NCBI GenBank assembly: GCA_033851265.1
Contig: JAWWOW010000025.1
Location: 79,386 to 143,385 of the forward strand
Direction of reading: 5' to 3'
Source of the DNA: Frankiales bacterium
GTDB taxonomy: Bacteria > Actinomycetota > Actinomycetes > JAWWOW01
Length of the DNA: 64,000 bases
This document shows positions 28,713 through 40,310 of this stretch, in pieces (within the stretch, counting starts at the first letter, position 1; every line of letters begins with the position of its first letter). The notes under the pieces were generated by a model that searched no databases, had not been told where the DNA came from, and was given only the letters and a program-made list of their open reading frames with translations. A program made the position numbers and the translations under genes.

Positions 28713-29966
28713 CTAGCCCTGCCCCGAGCCGGCCCGGACGACGGAGACCATCCCAGCACCGAGTCCGGCGAGACAGGCCACGGCAACAGCCATCAAGCCG
28801 AGCGGAACGCCGCCGTCGTGGTGGGCGGGCGCAGACCGTAGGTCGTTGCTCGGGCTCGGTGACAGCGCGGCGGGTGGCGAGGTCATGCGGGGCAGCGGGC
28901 TGATCGTCTTGACCGCATTCGAGGCCGGAGGCTTGCTTGCTGCCGTCGCCTTGTGGGTGGGTGCCGCCGACTTCGTCGGTTTTGCTGTCGTGAATTTCAC
29001 GCCGAGTGCGGCCGCCGCGTCGATGCGACCGGACCCGCCCCCGGACACCGGGTGCGCAGTCCCGGTGATGCGGCTGACAACGTCGGAGGAGCTGTAGCCC
29101 TTGCCGAGCAGCAACGCCGCGAGACCCGAAACGTGCGGCGCAGCCATGGAGGTGCCGGCGAGCGCGGCGTACCCGCCGCCCTTCCACGCCGCGATGATGC
29201 AGTCGTGGCCGTCTGACGCGCAGTCCGCGCCACGCGTGTCACCACCAGGTGCGGCGATTGTCACGCCCTGGCCGCGCTGGCTGTACGACGCGAGGCTGCC
29301 GCTCGGTGCCGTCGCCGCAACGATGAGCGCTTTGCCGCCGTAGTTGTCGCCCACCGGCCGGTTGTCGTTGCCAGCGGCGAACACCACGATGATCCCGCGC
29401 GCCACCGCAGCCTGGACGGCTTGCGTCACGACGCCGTGGTTCTGCTGAGTGTCCGCGTCCTCGGGTGCCAGCGACAGGTTGATGACCTCCGCGCCGTGGC
29501 CCGTGGCCCACCTGATGCCCGCCGCGACATCGGCCGTCGACCCCGTGCAGTCATGACCGTCGTACTTGAGCACGCGCACGGGCAAGATCGTGGCTCTCGG
29601 CGCGATGCCCCACTCCTTGCCGGCGGCCGTCCCAGCCACGTGCGTGCCGTGCCCGCAGGCGTCACGGCTCTTGGATGTGGTCCGGCTGCACGCACCCCCG
29701 ATGCAGTCCGCACCGGTCATCACCCGCCCACTGAGTTCGGGGTGGCCCGCCTCGACCCAGGTGTCGACTATCGCGACGACGACACCTGAGCCTCCCCGGC
29801 CGGCGTTCTGGACGGAGGTGTTGAGGTGAACTTGGTGGAAGTTCCACGACCCCTGGCCGGTGCTCGGCGGCTGGCCGGCGAGCGCAGTGCCCGGCGTACC
29901 CCCGATGAGCAAGCCGAGGACCGCAACGAGCAAGGGCAAGAACACACGCCCCGGCTGTCGGGTCAT
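28713..29966 (-). CDS. S8 family (subtilisin-like) serine peptidase with a C-terminal transmembrane anchor (mycosin-like topology)
   Basis: Signal peptide; catalytic Asp (VVAIVDTWVEAGH), His (HGTHVAG) and Ser (GTSMAAPHVSG) motifs; a C-terminal Pro/Ala-rich linker followed by the TM helix LGLMAVAVACLAGLGAGMV. Confidence 0.8.
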   Translation of the reverse strand: MTRQPGRVFLPLLVAVLGLLIGGTPGTALAGQPPSTGQGSWNFHQVHLNTSVQNAGRGGSGVVVAIVDTWVEAGHPELSGRVMTGADCIGGACSRTTSKSRDACGHGTHVAGTAAGKEWGIAPRATILPVRVLKYDGHDCTGSTADVAAGIRWATGHGAEVINLSLAPEDADTQQNHGVVTQAVQAAVARGIIVVFAAGNDNRPVGDNYGGKALIVAATAPSGSLASYSQRGQGVTIAAPGGDTRGADCASDGHDCIIAAWKGGGYAALAGTSMAAPHVSGLAALLLGKGYSSSDVVSRITGTAHPVSGGGSGRIDAAAALGVKFTTAKPTKSAAPTHKATAASKPPASNAVKTISPLPRMTSPPAALSPSPSNDLRSAPAHHDGGVPLGLMAVAVACLAGLGAGMVSVVRAGSGQG

Positions 29967-30629: not shown

Positions 30630-30705
30630 TCCCGCGTAGCTCAATTGGCAGAGCATTCGACTGTTAATCGAAGGGTTCCTGGTTCGAGTCCAGGCGCGGG
30701 AGCCA
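30630..30705 (+). tRNA. tRNA-Asn (anticodon GTT)
   Basis: Manual cloverleaf: acceptor TCCCGCG/CGCGGGA, D-arm GCTC-AATTGGCA-GAGC, anticodon arm TTCGA-CTGTTAA-TCGAA, T-arm CCTGG-TTCGAGT-CCAGG, discriminator G plus an encoded CCA. Confidence 0.9.
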
Positions 30706-31094: not shown

Positions 31095-33992
31095 TTAGTG
31101 CGGCGAGCCGTAGACCTCGATCTCCGACATGTCCATGAACTGGCAGCCGGAGAAGTCGCCGGGGTCAGGAGCGTCCGGTCCGCACCGTTGCGGGACACCG
31201 CCGTCGCCACAGTCCGCCGGCCCCGTGCACGCGTCGCCGCTGAACGGCACCTGTGGGGTGATCATCGTGAAGCGGAGGTAGCGCACGTTGGTCACCGCGG
31301 TGGCCTTGAGCGCCACGCTGTTCAGGTGCCCGCGGTTGCCGGCGTAGAAGATGCCGGAACTGAGGTCCTTGAACAGCCCGACACCGGTTGTCGACACCTC
31401 GATGCGGTAGCGCCGCGTTGAGGCACTCCCGCCGTCACCACACGTAGCGGCCGGGTCCACGGCAACCTCGGAGATGTCGATCGCCGTCGGCAGCTTGATG
31501 GTGATGTGCTTCGGCACCGCCGTGCCGTCGGGCTGGTCGGTTGCACCGGTGTCGCTGCCCCAACCGGAGCCGAGGTTCTGGTCGATCGCACCGTTCGGGC
31601 CGCAGCCGAAGTTGGAGTAGTCAGGCGGGTCGAACTTCGTGACATCAGCACCGCCGAAGATCGATGCCCAGTCGCGGCGCAGCTGGAAGTTCTTCGTCTT
31701 CGAGGGTGTGCTGATCGTCATGCTCGGCACGACGTTGATGTCGAAGCCCGCCCCGATCGCGAAGACCTTCGGGTAGGTCCCATAGGTGATCCCGTTGATC
31801 GTGTAGTTGCCGGCGGCGTTGGTCGTCGCCGCCAGGTCGGCCCCGAAGCCGGAGTCGTGTCCAGCGAACGCAACCGTGATCCCCGGGATGGGGCTGCCGG
31901 TTTCTTGGTTGGTCACCAGGCCCTTCAAGGTGCCGGTCGGCGTGCCAGGCGCCGGCGGCAGGCTGAAGTCTTCTGCTGGTGTCACGTCACCGCCGTCGAT
32001 CGCGCCGGCGAAGTAACCCATGCCGCGATGAGCGAAGACGGTCCAGACGGTCTTGCTCCAGCGGCCGTCACCGACTGCGTCCGCCTGCAGGATTGCGTTG
32101 CGCATGTCGAGCATCGTGGGGTCCGCGGGCGAGAGCTCCATCGCGCGGGTGACGAGACGCTCAGCGGTGAACGAGCCGACCGCGGTGCGGAGGTCCCACA
32201 AGGTCTCCGCCCAAATCTCGCCCTCCGCGTGGACCTCGGGGAAGCCGATGACCTTGCCGTAGTCGCCGTAGGTGTAGCCGCCGGGGCCGGTGTCGGCGCC
32301 GCCCGGGCACGCGTCGTCGGTGCTGCCGACCGGGCAGTCGAGGGGTTGCGTCCGGAACAGGCTCTGGCCACCCGCGGTGTACAGGCCGATGGCCATCTCG
32401 CCCGGCGCCGAGGTGTCGGTCATCAAGCCTTGCCGGCCCAGGAAGTCGAGGGCATACCAGTCACTCCAACCCTCACCCATCGAAGCCGCCTGGATGCTGG
32501 CGATGGTCGAGTTGCCGTCCGAGTCAACGACGAGCCGGTTCGAGAGCCCGTGCGTGTTCTCGTGGTAGACGATCGAAGCCTCATCCGAGCTGTTGCCGGC
32601 AATGAACGGGTCTTCGTCGGGATAGGACAGGCCCGGCTCATGGAACAGGTACATCTGCATACGTCCCGGCGTACCGTCCGGCGGTGTCGAGAAGTTGGCG
32701 TTGTCGGTGTGGAAGAAGTCGGGGAAGCCATCGCCATTGACGTTGGCGCCGTCGATGTTCTCCCCGTTGACCGCGTCGGAGCCTTGGAAGTTCCCGGCGG
32801 CAGGGGTGAATCCGATCGGGTCCTTCGCCAGATGGTCGTGGAACTTGTTGATGAAGTAGAACAGCTGCGTGGCGCTCTGCGCTCGGTTGGTCTTCCAGGA
32901 GAACGCCTTGTCAGGGTTCCACGAGCAGGGATATCCCGGCGGGCATGCGGGGCCCTGGAACTCCGTGAACGGGTAGTTGAAGTTGCTCGTGTTGTCCTTC
33001 GTCGTCTCCTCGTTGGCGGACGACGTATTGGAGTCGTTGACGTCGCTGTAGACGTGGGCGTTGGGACCACTCAACGTGGTGGCGCCTTGGTTGAGCCACT
33101 GGTCCAGTGTCACGCGATGGCGCGTGCCACCCAACGGCGCGTTCGGGTAGTTCTCGAGCACGTCCGCTGTGTCGTTGTTGACCAGGCTCCGGCGGTAGAG
33201 CAGCCGGCTGTCGGTTGCGTCGATGACGGAGAGGAACATCTCGCTGCCCGAGCCGACGATCGTCTGGTAGGCGAGACGGGTGCCCTCGACCGTGCGGAAG
33301 TAGACCTGCTTGGTCGCGCTACCGCCGGACACGGCTGCGTCGCGGCGTGCGGCAGCGATGGCTTGCGATGCGCTGATGCGTGCTGTTGACGTGGCGCGGT
33401 CGAAGTTGGCGAGTGGCGAGCCGACAACGTTGACCAGCCGGCCATCCTTGGTGACAGCGGCCTTCAAACCATTCCCGAACACCGGAACGCCCGCGATCCG
33501 CTGCTGGAAGAACAGGTGATGTGTGCCCTCGATGTCGGCGTAGTCACGGACGAGGTTCAACGCCTGGACGGCTTGAGTGGTGAGACCTAGCGCGGTCGCG
33601 TTCGTCGTGACATAGCCGAGCGCGATCGCCTGCGGTGTTGCCTTGCTCGGGCTGGTCAGGAATCCGTCCGTGCGACCGATCATGCGGACGGTGCCGGTCA
33701 GTGGGTCGATTGACAGCAGACCCTGATTACCGAGCTTGCTTCGGAGTGCCGCGGCCGCCGCCGCCGCGGAGGCAGCGCGCTGTGGGGCGAGGGCGCGAAG
33801 CGCCTTCTGCGCTGCTGGCGTCTTCCGGGCGTCGTACAGCGCCTTCTTGGCGTGCGGCTGGGACGCTTGCCCGCGGCTGCCCTCGGCCCGGTCGGTGACG
33901 GCTCGCGCAGCCGGTGCACCGGCCGCGACGGACGCGACCATTCCCGCGATGACGATGACGCGTAGCGAGCGACGAGCGATTGGCTTGCGCAT
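31095..33992 (-). CDS. Secreted M36 (fungalysin-like) zinc metallopeptidase with an FTP propeptide, a carboxypeptidase-regulatory-like domain and an F5/8-type-C (discoidin) domain
   Basis: Signal peptide MRKPIARRSLRVIVIAGMVASVAAGAPAARA. The zinc motif YHENTHGLSNRL (HExxH) plus GEGWSDWYALDF match the M36 signatures HEYTHG / GEGWSD. The C-terminus has a GNYTINGITYGTY beta-sandwich and a discoidin-like domain. Confidence 0.8.
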   Translation of the reverse strand: MRKPIARRSLRVIVIAGMVASVAAGAPAARAVTDRAEGSRGQASQPHAKKALYDARKTPAAQKALRALAPQRAASAAAAAAALRSKLGNQGLLSIDPLTGTVRMIGRTDGFLTSPSKATPQAIALGYVTTNATALGLTTQAVQALNLVRDYADIEGTHHLFFQQRIAGVPVFGNGLKAAVTKDGRLVNVVGSPLANFDRATSTARISASQAIAAARRDAAVSGGSATKQVYFRTVEGTRLAYQTIVGSGSEMFLSVIDATDSRLLYRRSLVNNDTADVLENYPNAPLGGTRHRVTLDQWLNQGATTLSGPNAHVYSDVNDSNTSSANEETTKDNTSNFNYPFTEFQGPACPPGYPCSWNPDKAFSWKTNRAQSATQLFYFINKFHDHLAKDPIGFTPAAGNFQGSDAVNGENIDGANVNGDGFPDFFHTDNANFSTPPDGTPGRMQMYLFHEPGLSYPDEDPFIAGNSSDEASIVYHENTHGLSNRLVVDSDGNSTIASIQAASMGEGWSDWYALDFLGRQGLMTDTSAPGEMAIGLYTAGGQSLFRTQPLDCPVGSTDDACPGGADTGPGGYTYGDYGKVIGFPEVHAEGEIWAETLWDLRTAVGSFTAERLVTRAMELSPADPTMLDMRNAILQADAVGDGRWSKTVWTVFAHRGMGYFAGAIDGGDVTPAEDFSLPPAPGTPTGTLKGLVTNQETGSPIPGITVAFAGHDSGFGADLAATTNAAGNYTINGITYGTYPKVFAIGAGFDINVVPSMTISTPSKTKNFQLRRDWASIFGGADVTKFDPPDYSNFGCGPNGAIDQNLGSGWGSDTGATDQPDGTAVPKHITIKLPTAIDISEVAVDPAATCGDGGSASTRRYRIEVSTTGVGLFKDLSSGIFYAGNRGHLNSVALKATAVTNVRYLRFTMITPQVPFSGDACTGPADCGDGGVPQRCGPDAPDPGDFSGCQFMDMSEIEVYGSPH

Positions 33993-34134
33993 AACCCAGC
34001 CCCCCCGATCGGCAGATGCCAGCGGGCAGGATCCTGTACCCATTTGGGATGGTTCGTCCAGAGGTTGGCGTGGACATGGGTCCCGTGAGGCGATTGTGCT
34101 CGTCGTAGAGTCGCGGCTCGCGGGTCATCCCGCC

Positions 34135-34208
34135 GGGGCAGTAGCTCAGCCGGTTAGAGCAGGGGACTCATAATCCCTGGGTCGCAGGTTCGAGTCCTGC
34201 CTGCCCCA
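34135..34208 (+). tRNA. tRNA-Met (anticodon CAT), elongator type; CCA not encoded
   Basis: Cloverleaf: acceptor GGGGCAG/CTGCCCC, D-arm GCTC-AGCCGGTTA-GAGC, anticodon arm GGGGA-CTCATAA-TCCCT, T-arm GCAGG-TTCGAGT-CCTGC, discriminator A. The 1:72 pair is G:C, and the anticodon-stem pair adjacent to the loop is A:T, so it is not an initiator. Confidence 0.9.
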
Positions 34209-34240
34209 CTAAGTGCCTGCCCCACTAAGCCCCCACCAAG
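34198..34240 (+). repeat. Tandem duplication (16 bp x ~2.7) of the tRNA-Met 3' end; att-like integration scar
   Basis: TGCCTGCCCCACTAAG occurs at 34198-34213 (overlapping the tRNA T-stem and acceptor 3' half) and is repeated exactly at 34214-34229, then partially (CCCCCACCAAG) at 34230-34240. Confidence 0.8.
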
Positions 34241-36728: not shown

Positions 36729-38452
36729 CTACGGACTTCCGAGCACCTCTTCGCCAGCGGTTGGGCCGTCGGTAGTACCAGACACCGCTGCCGCGTCGTC
36801 CTGTGATGACAATGCGGTGGAGACAAGCTCATTGGGGATGTTTGGCTCCGTGAGCTGTCCCGGCTCAGGCTGGCGCAGTTTGGGCGGTGCGGGTGACCAT
36901 CCCTTTACCGACTGGACAACGCCCTTGTAGAAGGAATCGAGCAGGTCCAGCACGGAACCCACGAATGACCCTTTGCCCTGTCCGCGCTTGCTGCCACTCG
37001 ACTTGGAAAGCGTGAGGGTGAAGGAACGTATCTCCCGCTTCTGCTCGTCCAGCAACAGCGACGGGTCCTCACGGACCTTGCGCAACAGGTCGGACCTGCT
37101 TGTTCCGCGCGACCAAGGTGTGAACGCGTCGATACGCAGATCATCAGGGGCGTCTTTCAACTGGCGCAGCAACCAGTTGATACGCGTTAGCGGTCGTCCC
37201 TCTTTGGGAGCGTCCACCGACAGTGACGCCGAGACCTGTCCGGCCCGCAGATCGGCGGTCAGCACGACAGGACCAACGGTGTTGGGAACTCGTAGAGAGC
37301 CCGTGAGCGTGCCCTTGCTCACCAGCGATGTCATCTGTTCTTGCATCCGCGAACCCGGATTTGCTAGGTCACGGCGTGACAGCGCAGGCAGCACCTCGAT
37401 GCCCAGTTGGCGTCCGAGACGCATCCCCGCGTAGCGCACGAGCTGCTCCCACTTCGCAGCAACTTCGGTAACGCCCTTGTCGGTCGCACGGACAGTTCCC
37501 GCACTGATGGCGTCGCGCACGGTCACCCACGACGTGCCCATGTCATCGAAATCGACAAGCCCGGACTTCGGATGTTCCAGATACCGGATGAATTCGGAAA
37601 GGATGTATGCCTGGTCAGGATCGCTCACCGAACTGTTGACCTTGTGCATAATCGCTTCGGTGTGAATCTGACTCCACGACAAATGATGCAGCGCAACCTT
37701 GCGCAGCTTCCGCTTGTCCACCGCCGTGGGATGCACACCGCTGGCCGTTGGTATCTCATTGGATATTGAGAGCAGCGCATTGAACCCCTGCTCGCGTGCC
37801 ACGTCGAGGTAGCACTCCAATTGCTCAGCACGGAGGTCGTTCTTTCCGGTCTTCACCTCAACCAGCGCAACCCATGAACGCTGGCCGCGCGTTACGCGGA
37901 TAAGGCCGTCTGGGTAGACCCGCTTGCCGTTCAGATCGAACGGCACCTCGATGAACGTCTCGATAGTCCCGGCAGGGGCATCCAGGCGTGCGGTCACCGA
38001 CTTGCCGAACTCCCGAACCGCGCTCAGCACGGCCAGTAGCGCCGACGTGCCGCGTCTCTCCTGCTCATCAGCGCCCGAGATGCCCGTGGTCGGGATCAGG
38101 CGTGCTGCGTGCCAACTTTCCTCTGCCACCGCGTCTCCCCGTGCTGCCAGTCCGTCGCGTAACGGCGACCGTAGACCGAAAGGTCTCCATTGAGCACGTG
38201 GGCAGGTCAGCCAGTCCGTCTGCAACGTCGCGTACGTTCCGTTCGGGTCGAGCCGACGAAAGCCGACTCGGTGCCGATCTGGCGGATCACCCACTGCGCG
38301 ACTGTTGCGGCGACTGGCATATCGCTGGTCGAAGACATTGAAGCCGACAGCTACGAGCGGGAAGGCAGCTGGCAGTTGCTGGTCATCTGGCAGTGCGTGG
38401 TCAATCGGCCACGCATGGTCGTTGTGCGCAGGTTGCCGATGAACGTGCATGT
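36729..38452 (-). CDS. RecB/Cas4-like PD-(D/E)xK nuclease-domain protein (~574 aa) with extra N- and C-terminal domains; start uncertain
   Basis: A complete RecB-family motif set is present: motif I E (TIETFIEVPFD), motif II D (YPDGLIRV), motif III ExK (WVALVEVKTGKN) and a QxxxY motif (RAEQLECY). The conserved N-terminal segment is WHAARLIPTTGISGADEQERRGTSALLAVL. The ATG at 38452 was chosen; the maximal ORF extends to 38603. Confidence 0.6.
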
Positions 38453-38572
38453 GGAACGGCGGTGTGCGTGAGCGAAACACCGAAACGCACGCCTGAGAGC
38501 GCCAGTTCGCCTCCGCGTCGGTCTGTTCGCGGCGAGACCATAAGGAGTAGTCGTCGCTGCCTTGAACGCGTG

Positions 38573-39514
38573 CTACTCGCCCGTGTGACGGGACGCAACC
38601 CACCCGGCCCCAGCGGCTGCCAGTAGGGCAAGCATCGCGGGCGCGAACTCTCGTGCTGCTAGTAAGACGATGCCGATTAGCAGCATGACGAATAGCAGGT
38701 ACCGCGCACGCCCTCCAATCACCGCCCCCGCTTCATCGTCAACCGACCTGCTGGCCACGGCTGCCGGGACCAGCACTTGCGCTGACGCCGGGACAGCCGT
38801 CTGACGCTCCCGTGTTGACGATTTAGATGCCTGACCTCCTGGTCGATTGAGCATCAGCACGAGAACAACAGCCCAGGACCACAACATCAATAGCGCAGTC
38901 GCCGCACACCAAACGGCGGTCGTCGTGCTGCTTTCCAGTTCTGAGACCGTTGGTGGCAACGAGTTATCGCCGCCAGGGATGTGAGAAAACGCTTGCAGGA
39001 TCACGACGACGATGTAGAGGACCCACCAACCATTGAGCAAGGCGCGTCGAAGCCCGCGCACTCGACCCGACTCTGATTCCCACAACTCGATCATCGCTCG
39101 CCGAGCCATCGCATAGCCGTACACCGGAATGAAGGGCGAGCGGGCAAGGCGACGTTGTGACTTCGGAGCACGTGCTGCTCCTTGTGACACGTACAACCAA
39201 CGGAAGAATAGAAGCAGGGAGACGAACGAAAGCAAGCCAGCGATGTCGAGAAAGTCACTTGCGACGACCAGCGCGTGGGGCTTAGGAACTCCGCCGTACT
39301 CGGAGTTGTTGCAGAGAATGGTCAGCACAGCGTCCGGGTTCTGACATGCCTCACTGATGGGTCCTATTCGTGAGCGGCCATCCAGTGCGTCGAGGTCATG
39401 GAGACCAGCCACGCCATTGGCGGCACTGACCAGGTAGCAAACAGCACACCCGACCAGACAAACCCATAAGACGAGGGGCAATCGTGAACGCCCTTGGCTC
39501 GCCATGACACCCAT
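38573..39514 (-). CDS. Membrane protein (4-5 TM), first gene of the putative nuclease operon
   Basis: A 313 aa ORF with hydrophobic helices (LPLVLWVCLVGCAVCYLV..., WWVLYIVVVILQAF..., AVWCAATALLMLWSWAVVLVLML..., YLLFVMLLIGIVLLAA...). It lies ~120 bp upstream of the nuclease gene on the same strand. Confidence 0.5.
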   Translation of the reverse strand: MGVMASQGRSRLPLVLWVCLVGCAVCYLVSAANGVAGLHDLDALDGRSRIGPISEACQNPDAVLTILCNNSEYGGVPKPHALVVASDFLDIAGLLSFVSLLLFFRWLYVSQGAARAPKSQRRLARSPFIPVYGYAMARRAMIELWESESGRVRGLRRALLNGWWVLYIVVVILQAFSHIPGGDNSLPPTVSELESSTTTAVWCAATALLMLWSWAVVLVLMLNRPGGQASKSSTRERQTAVPASAQVLVPAAVASRSVDDEAGAVIGGRARYLLFVMLLIGIVLLAAREFAPAMLALLAAAGAGWVASRHTGE

Positions 39515-39537
39515 GATGGTGGGAAGGTGAGTGGTTT

Positions 39538-40203
39538 ATGAAGCTTGATCAGAAGGCTGCTGATCGCCTGGTCGCCATGCTCGCGAAGGCGGACGACCTG
39601 CTGAAGACGTACAAGAGCCCTCCTTCGAACTTCATTGGATTCGAGGGGTGGGTAGATAGCGAGTTGTTCGCTGAGTGGCGAGCGCAGAGTCTCGTTCTGC
39701 TTCGCCAGTCACTCGGCCGAGAGCATCAGTACACGCGGTCCTTTCAAGAGGGAACGGAGAAGGAGAGCGTGCCGAGCTCAGTCCGGCACGGAATAGGGAT
39801 ACTCCGAGCAGCTTCGGAGGACCTGTCCAACGGCTATCTGTTCGAAGCCCGATCCCTCATCGAGGCTGAGGTCTTCGATGACTTCTTGCAGATGGCGCAA
39901 CATCTCAACCAGCAGGGATACAAGGATCCGGCCGCATCCTTGGCAGGAGCAGTACTCGAGGACGGCCTTCGCCGCATCGCCACAGGCCACGAAGTGCCAT
40001 TCTCAAAGTCAGACGGCCTTGACGCGTTGAACAAGGCGATTGCCAGCCATGGGATTTATAACAAGCTGACCCAGTCGAAGGTGGACTCGTGGAGAGTCAT
40101 CCGCAATGCGGCTGATCATGGCAACTTCGGGGAATACGGCACCGAGGACGTGACCGCCCTTATCGAAGGAGTCGTCGACCTGCTTGGCCGCCATCTAGTG
40201 TGA
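39538..40203 (+). CDS. HEPN-motif protein (DUF4145/Abi-like, predicted RNase), divergent from the nuclease operon
   Basis: A 221 aa soluble helical protein, preceded by GGAAGG, carrying the Rx4-6H HEPN motif near the C-terminus (WRVIRNAADHG). Its local GC of ~60% (counted over 39538-39600) is lower than the backbone. Confidence 0.5.
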   Translation: MKLDQKAADRLVAMLAKADDLLKTYKSPPSNFIGFEGWVDSELFAEWRAQSLVLLRQSLGREHQYTRSFQEGTEKESVPSSVRHGIGILRAASEDLSNGYLFEARSLIEAEVFDDFLQMAQHLNQQGYKDPAASLAGAVLEDGLRRIATGHEVPFSKSDGLDALNKAIASHGIYNKLTQSKVDSWRVIRNAADHGNFGEYGTEDVTALIEGVVDLLGRHLV

Positions 40204-40310
40204 CGGACGTCGCCTGCGCACCATTCGGCGGCGCCGACTGCTTGAACTGCCCGCCGTCGGCGCTTTCAACTGTTGTTTGAACTGCAACGCGCGTCACTAC
40301 GATTGGCACC

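Follow-up and report, generated by a model that had tools for sequence, protein, structure and literature searches.

The window analysed here is a 64-kb stretch of DNA (64,000 nucleotides) from a Frankiales bacterium, and the gene that concerns us lies on its forward strand at positions 39538-40203. It is a complete gene for a protein of 221 residues with two domains, an N-terminal four-helix bundle and a C-terminal HEPN domain that carries the conserved signature of a predicted ribonuclease (RNase). The features of the gene are listed below in window coordinates, together with the confidence of the AlphaFold2 (AF2) model, given as the predicted local distance difference test (pLDDT) and the predicted template modelling score (pTM), where this bears on the domain boundaries.

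39521 to 39531, plus strand: Shine-Dalgarno-like GGGAAGGTGAG, read from the sequence, inside the 23-bp divergent spacer at 39515-39537; putative in function.
39538 to 40203, plus strand: complete two-domain gene, 221 codons plus stop, with an ATG start, from the list of open reading frames (ORFs) and the sequence.
39538 to 39837, plus strand: residues 1-100, N-terminal four-helix-bundle domain (helices 3-22, 41-59, 64-72 and 79-97), proposed as a sensor or regulatory module.
39838 to 39867, plus strand: residues ~101-110, flexible interdomain linker, where the pLDDT goes down to 57; the pTM is 0.56 for the full-length protein against 0.84 for the N-terminal domain alone.
39844 to 40200, plus strand: residues ~103-221, C-terminal HEPN domain (helices 103-125 and 129-150, an inserted helix 161-170, then 176-193 and 202-219).
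39958 to 39972, plus strand: E141-D-G-L-R145, acidic Ex3[KR] motif on HEPN helix 2, within helix 129-150.
40102 to 40119, plus strand: catalytic Rx4H motif R189-N-A-A-D-H194, which closes helix 176-193 at its C-terminal end and runs into the start of the loop.

The 221-residue product has the same sequence as QOG53_3615, an NCBI hypothetical protein from a Frankiales metagenome-assembled genome, and 412 clusters of homologs of ~217-221 residues were recovered for it. The ATG start is well supported because the homologs align from residue 1 and a Shine-Dalgarno-like element, GGAAGGTGA, is positioned 7-14 nt 5' of it. Cysteine is absent from the protein, as are hydrophobic segments, the maximum 19-residue hydropathy being 0.79, and the AF2 model (pLDDT 92) is all-helical with nine helices. 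The ORF, the hydropathy and the model therefore all agree with an earlier note on this DNA, made from the sequence alone, which had described a soluble helical protein of 221 residues at this position. The same note had put 24 bp between the start of the gene and that of the membrane-protein gene on the opposite strand; this is the measured start-to-start difference, and the spacer itself, counted to the earliest start that the divergent ORF could use (39514), is 23 bp. A scan for sigma-70 promoters found none at the locus, with a model that is not suited to Actinobacteria, and a terminator scan made no call after the HEPN gene. Located 28 nt past the stop codon there is a GC-rich inverted repeat (40231-40263; GGCGCCGAC...GTCGGCGCC-like) followed by a U-rich TTTCAACTGTTGTTTG tract. 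Considered as a possible terminator, this hairpin was not better than shuffled sequences (z -1.16).

The stretch that marks the protein as a HEPN domain is WRVIRNAADHG, at residues 185-195. The bare pattern Rx4-6H is found four times in the protein, starting at R56, R145, R146 and R189, and this is not above chance. The motif is nevertheless taken as real because, in an alignment of 48 homologs with 41-74% identity, conservation singles out R189...H194 alone among the four occurrences: R189, A192, D193, H194, G195 and F197 show no variation, and N190 is kept in at least 90% of the sequences, with an aspartate in a few. The acidic motif of helix 2 is conserved to a similar degree, with E141, G143, L144 and R145 invariant. 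According to Anantharaman et al. (2013; PMC3710099), helix 3 of a HEPN domain ends in an Rx4-6H motif whose arginine is followed by a polar residue (N, D or H), helix 2 bears an acidic residue, typically in an Ex3[KR] motif, and the two helices are separated by a variable insert. All of these are found here, within a four-helix up-down bundle that has its insert between helices 2 and 3.

The profile and fold searches point in the same direction. While PDB sequence searches with the single sequence and with the profile gave noise only, 33 of the 48 homologs matched the Pfam HEPN family PF05168, several of them above the gathering cut-off of 22 bits (P0073, P0042 and P0083, for instance, with 36.1, 31.8 and 29.1), and the match runs from position 10 to 112 of the 117 in the profile, corresponding to residues ~113-215 of the homologs. 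When the full model was searched with Foldseek, the top 14 PDB matches were all HEPN proteins (probability 0.91-1.0), led by the HepT toxins 5yep, 6m6w and 7bxo and followed by AF_0298 (2hsb), TM0613 and 7ae8. The E-values, between 0.04 and 0.8, are modest because only half of the model aligns; superposed on 2hsb the model gives a template modelling (TM) score of 0.74 and a root-mean-square deviation of 2.6 Å over 118 columns. Through its homologs, its motif and its modelled fold, the protein is assigned by transitive membership to the HEPN superfamily, as a PF05168-type member, and the earlier note was correct in recognising WRVIRNAADHG as the HEPN RNase motif. Three outcomes had been named there as speaking against the assignment, namely no HEPN hit, an unrelated fold and an unconserved motif; in each case the opposite was observed. 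A separate observation is that 28 of the 48 family members weakly match the NCBIfam model TIGR03329, 'putative aminophosphonate oxidoreductase' (best E 1.8e-06). This model may include a HEPN-like helical segment.

The N-terminal domain is of a different kind. It consists of four helices, the first of them followed by a short beta bridge, and, when modelled alone, it is predicted with a pLDDT of 92.4. No Pfam model matched it even at E<=10, including those for DpnII, DUF3644 and AbiJ_NTD, and a fold search of the domain alone against the PDB returned generic helical bundles only and no HEPN protein. We considered whether it might be a degenerate second HEPN domain and rejected this: compared with the C-terminal half of the protein by hhalign the probability is 0.4%, and the fold search had likewise not recovered a HEPN.

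Although it lacks a model, the domain is widespread, being present in 1112 representative clusters in an exhaustive profile search. A census of architectures was made with the best 146 representatives, of which 57 are fragments and 89 are not. The C-terminal part is a HEPN domain in 67 of these 89 and something else in the other 22. It is a TIR domain in P0247 and P0299, a Ymh-type HEPN in P0298 and P0329 and TCAD2 in P0357. P0267 carries a Cap12-like, TIR-like domain (E 8.8e-07 against PDB 9lmq), P0258 an AgaN-like PD-(D/E)xK nuclease (E 9e-04), and in three representatives the domain is followed by a transmembrane tail. Since it is fused to so many different effector domains, the N-terminal domain is a portable module of conflict-system effectors. 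In P0298, P0329 and P0357 an extra segment of ~100 residues, by eye winged-helix-like, precedes the four-helix bundle, giving a three-domain variant in which the segment is followed by the bundle and then by Ymh-HEPN or TCAD2.

By scanning one genome per species over ~185,000 species genomes we found the HEPN family in 222 of them (~0.1%), scattered in a patchy fashion over many phyla. It is also present on 27 plasmids, mostly small mobilizable plasmids of Acinetobacter, where the gene sits between RelE/HTH and BrnT/BrnA modules, and homologs from culturable hosts and plasmids are available in Acinetobacter, Hymenobacter and Pedobacter. RefSeq labels homologs 'HEPN domain-containing' and some of them 'DUF4145 domain-containing'. 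No match to the family was seen in the INPHARED phages or in IMG/VR, and this absence from the phage and viral collections is uninformative on defence either way.

To analyse the neighbours, the flanking ORFs of 80 genome loci were clustered and the clusters verified with Pfam. The only recurrent neighbours are HsdM, HsdS and HsdR, the subunits of type I restriction-modification (R-M) enzymes, at least one of which is present within 3.5 kb in 15 of the 80 loci. These embedded copies are co-directional with the hsd genes, often with gaps of 0-15 bp, and they occur in at least seven phylum-level lineages and in several gene orders. At one locus (L014, 3442-10651) the operon reads hsdM-HEPN-hsdS-AAA_13-hsdR, the AAA_13 ATPase having 774 residues, a size like that of PrrC/RloC; at others (L059, 1176-8950, with L045, L053 and L068, from Latescibacterota and Nitrospinota) it reads Fic-DUF2806-hsdS-HEPN-hsdR. 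Operons of these two types hold several hitchhiker genes at once. Beyond the Hsd subunits the surroundings are very diverse, with 116 different Pfam families among the 134 nearest neighbours, and DUF433 genes are found downstream of the HEPN gene in 6 loci. The earlier note had likened the protein to the DUF4145/Abi-type HEPN proteins of restriction loci. At the level of the family this is apt, given the 15 type I R-M loci; for the window copy it does not hold, since there is no Hsd homolog in the whole 64 kb.

The divergent membrane-protein ORF (38573-39514) encodes a DUF4328 protein. Beyond it lies what had been read as a 624-residue nuclease on the minus strand (36729-38603); this ORF is over-extended and the true gene, QOG53_3613 in NCBI, encodes 466 residues at 36729-38129, with a GTG start at 38129, as both the NCBI entry and over 5000 homologs show. 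The true start leaves 443 bp up to the DUF4328 gene and, because of this gap, an operon of the two genes is doubtful. The 466-residue protein does contain a PD-(D/E)xK-like stretch, 'YPDG...LVEVK', and matches VRR_NUC weakly (E 0.093). It belongs to a family spread throughout Actinobacteria that counts over 5000 clusters (58-73% identity among the listed ones). The family lacks a Pfam model, goes in some sources by the name 'stress response protein' and has neighbours that vary between genomes; in the three genomes sampled, neither HEPN nor DUF4328 genes were beside it. On the other side of the HEPN gene there is an ORFan for a membrane-anchored protein of 215 residues, with no homolog in the other loci. 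No MNT gene (NTP_transf_2) stands beside the HEPN gene in the window.

All of these genes lie in a stretch of lower GC content. Between 34210 and 42000 the GC content is 60.6%, compared with 66.0% elsewhere in the window. The HEPN gene itself has 58% GC and a GC content at third codon positions (GC3) of 0.70, with 0.61-0.72 for its neighbours and 0.79-0.85 for the flanking core genes. The stretch is directly preceded by a tRNA-Met gene (CAT; 34135-34209), the last 16 nt of which are exactly duplicated in tandem (TGCCTGCCCCACTAAG, at 34198-34213 and 34214-34229) in what looks like an integration or excision scar. There is no third copy of these 16 nt in the window, such as a distal attachment repeat, and an integrase was not seen either. 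Because of the lower GC and GC3 and the adjacency to tRNA-Met, horizontal acquisition is suggested, and the low-GC stretch with the HEPN gene is probably a horizontally acquired island. It is crowded with ORFan-like membrane proteins, of 244, 432, 313 and 215 residues. Upstream of it are genes for two large secreted peptidases, an S8 subtilase (28713-29966) and an M36 fungalysin with FTP, CarboxypepD_reg and F5/8 type C domains (31095-34043), and a tRNA-Asn gene (30630-30705).

The neighbours of the three closest homologs for which context is available (58-70% identity) are wholly different from those in the window: transposases, an integrase, a relaxase, an HTH-M78 regulator, a SNIPE/T5orf172 nuclease and a Ser/Thr kinase. 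More generally, homologs of nine window neighbours were looked for in 83 loci, up to 3.5 kb from the HEPN gene, and not one was present. A linkage of the HEPN gene to the DUF4328 gene, the 466-residue gene or its other neighbours in the window is thereby rejected from both directions by synteny. Within the window the gene stands solo: neither a partner nor an R-M system is near it.

The reading that we favour, and which we hold to be somewhat better than an even bet, is that we are dealing with a stand-alone conflict-system protein of two domains, a solo and horizontally acquired predicted RNase of the abortive-infection type in which the N-terminal domain gates the effector. Because the HEPN active-site signature is complete (Ex3R on helix 2 and RNxxxH at the end of helix 3), the C-terminal domain is predicted to be a metal-independent endoribonuclease. 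Going by what is established for HEPN enzymes (PMC3710099, PMC13017515), it would be active as a dimer or a higher oligomer with a composite active site. The N-terminal module would either sense a trigger derived from the infection or drive oligomerisation, and would keep the RNase silent until needed; the outcome would be growth arrest of the abortive-infection type. By analogy, this is the sensor-plus-effector plan of AbiJ-type proteins and of RAZR.

Several observations weigh against this reading. The window protein itself has no significant match in Pfam (none at E<=1), NCBIfam or PADLOC, and its membership of the HEPN superfamily rests on homologs, motif and fold and not on a direct profile match. 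A PADLOC scan of the 48 homologs gave three isolated weak matches only, no known defence-system model fits the family, and no experimental study of the family was found in the literature. As many as 65 of the 80 loci are without defence neighbours, the nearest genes often being housekeeping ones. Some HEPN domains with intact motifs, for example that of AbiA, are inactive or serve dimerisation only (PMC13064643). Finally, harm would be expected from a solo RNase toxin that is not regulated, and that the N-terminal domain holds it in check is purely what we infer.

Among the alternatives the one that survives best, while still unlikely, is that the protein acts as an R-M guard in the manner of PrrC, that is, as an accessory RNase tied to a type I R-M enzyme and unleashed by phage anti-restriction, the enzyme in this case being encoded elsewhere. 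The sole recurrence in the neighbourhood census, with the Hsd subunits in tight co-directional arrays, argues for such a role, and both the guard logic of PrrC and the clustering of PF05168-type HEPN genes with R-M systems are documented (PMC3710099). However, the window holds no Hsd gene, R-M neighbours are missing from 65 of the 80 loci as well as from all three close homologs, the protein has no ATPase domain of the PrrC/RloC type, and the N-terminal domain is also found on effectors in settings other than R-M.

More doubtful is the possibility that the protein is not a toxin at all, being instead a housekeeping RNA-processing enzyme or a non-catalytic HEPN protein that binds nucleotides or other ligands. 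It would be consistent with this that many of the nearest neighbours are genes of translation or RNA metabolism (pseudouridine synthase, GluRS, TyrRS, LepA and RimP) and that some HEPN domains are inactive or ligand-binding (PMC3710099, PMC13064643), and it would also do away with the need to explain how a solo toxin is tolerated by its own host. Yet it is largely a single Dehalococcoidia lineage that contributes these housekeeping neighbours, the catalytic signature is invariant throughout, and presence in only ~0.1% of species genomes, but across many phyla and on plasmids, is not the pattern of a housekeeping gene. The sharing of the N-terminal domain with TIR, Cap12, nuclease and TCAD2 immune effectors also speaks against it.

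That the protein is the toxin of a toxin-antitoxin (TA) pair, with an adjacent antitoxin that would be an MNT protein for type VII, a small protein for type II or a repeat RNA for type III, is improbable, and the synteny census has largely refuted it. Its attraction lies in the best structural matches, which are the HepT toxins of HEPN-MNT pairs, in the DUF433 genes downstream in some loci, and in the Acinetobacter plasmids, where the gene (homolog WP_005065062.1) lies among TA modules and, in two cases (L089, 3470-4597, on pOCUAc17-3 of Acinetobacter pittii, and L090), a gene for a 133-residue hypothetical protein is 51 bp upstream. This 133-residue ORF was considered as a partner and rejected, as it recurs in no other locus. 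The earlier note had advised looking for a cognate antitoxin in homologous loci; among the 134 nearest neighbours there is neither an MNT or other nucleotidyltransferase gene nor a recurrent small ORF, and the variety of families that flank the gene is itself against a fixed partner. Nor was a tandem-repeat array suitable as a type III antitoxin RNA seen within 400 bp of the gene, in the window or in the 83 loci, and the window offers only the 23 bp upstream and the ORFan downstream that lacks homologs elsewhere. Least probable of all is the model of the earlier note, which makes the HEPN protein a further effector or toxin under joint regulation with the DUF4328 and nuclease-like genes in one multi-gene defence locus, for although the divergent spacer is short, the 466-residue neighbour has its nuclease-like stretch and the three genes share the low-GC stretch, none of the nine neighbours recurs in the 83 loci, homologs of the 466-residue protein have unrelated neighbours, 443 bp separate its gene from DUF4328 and PADLOC is blank for all six local genes.

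To return to the stand-alone two-domain protein, a broader proposal can be made for its N-terminal bundle, though we hold this with less confidence and would sooner wager against it than for it. It may be a previously uncatalogued domain for infection sensing or trigger-dependent oligomerisation that has been joined to seven or more classes of effector (PF05168-HEPN, Ymh-HEPN, TIR, Cap12-like TIR, AgaN-like PD-(D/E)xK nuclease, TCAD2 and membrane tails). It would then define a new family of single-chain bacterial immune receptors, with the window gene as the version that carries a HEPN RNase, and type I R-M operons would have enlisted a subset of the family as back-up effectors.

Taken alone, one more HEPN protein is an ordinary result, the more so as RefSeq already labels homologs 'HEPN domain-containing' automatically. 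The analysis does correct the picture of the locus, which is an island-like stretch next to tRNA-Met with a mis-extended neighbouring ORF and not a HEPN-plus-nuclease system. The more interesting remainder is the uncatalogued and widely shuffled N-terminal domain, ~100 residues without a model that are found in ~1100 representative clusters and swapped among classical immune effectors. If it is a trigger sensor, the family would provide a compact single-gene system for studying how a small sensor gates HEPN, TIR and nuclease effectors, and it could also show why some copies have been wired into type I R-M operons.

Of the known systems, the closest in fold are the minimal HEPN proteins of the HEPN-T/PF05168 type (5yep, 6m6w, 7ae8, 2hsb and 1o3u), the HepT toxins of HEPN-MNT pairs among them, which give the best matches in both profile and structure. 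PF05168-type genes have been noted to cluster with R-M systems (PMC3710099), as is the case for the present family. The window protein differs from them in being ~100 residues longer, through its N-terminal bundle, and in itself falling below the Pfam threshold. Compared with the type VII HEPN-MNT pairs, the family has no MNT neighbour, neither among the 134 nearest neighbours nor in the loci of the close homologs, and compared with the HEPN toxins of type III TA systems (AbiV/AbiF-like) the adjacent tandem-repeat RNA is missing.

DUF4145 proteins and PrrC/RloC are likewise HEPN effectors found between hsd genes, the same embedding as in the 15 R-M loci of the present family. For DUF4145 (PF13643), 3 of the 48 members give a match, the best with E 0.0024 and 18.3 bits, below the cut-off of 23.1. 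PrrC/RloC carry an N-terminal ABC-type ATPase for which there is no counterpart in the 221 residues of the window protein, and unlike the R-M-embedded PrrC/RloC the window copy lies outside any hsd operon. The AAA_13 protein at L014 is a separate polypeptide that co-occurs with the HEPN gene, whereas the ATPase of PrrC/RloC is fused.

The likeness to AbiJ is one of overall plan, with two domains and with an N-terminal domain of ~100 residues that is common to TIR, REase-fold and other HEPN effectors. AbiJ-NTD2 has been described as an alpha-helical domain of ~100 residues whose helix 1 has a beta strand beside it and which occurs in fusions with restriction endonuclease (REase) as well as TIR domains (PMC3710099), and the N-terminal domain of the window protein resembles it in size, secondary structure and fusion repertoire, as judged from that description. 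The AbiJ-like arrangement, in which one N-terminal domain is placed on several unrelated effectors, is what the census of architectures found. The HEPN part does not follow AbiJ so closely: against the AbiJ HEPN model (NCBIfam STM4504/CBY_0614) 11 of the 48 members match, with a best E of 0.001, and the window protein scores 11.6 bits where the cut-off is 150, while none of the 48 matches the Pfam model Abi_C.

RAZR, a ring-activated zinc-finger RNase, is one small polypeptide with an N-terminal sensor, a conserved linker and a C-terminal HEPN domain; it is activated by phage proteins to bring about abortive infection, and its catalysis needs the R and the H of the motif (PMC13017515). The two proteins differ in their parts, the sensor of RAZR being a Cys4 zinc ribbon and its HEPN of the DUF4145 type, while the window protein has no cysteine, a four-helix N-terminal domain, a PF05168-type HEPN and no match in PADLOC. 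In the order of its modules, however, RAZR may by analogy be the best experimentally grounded model for how a protein with this N-terminal domain and a HEPN effector works.

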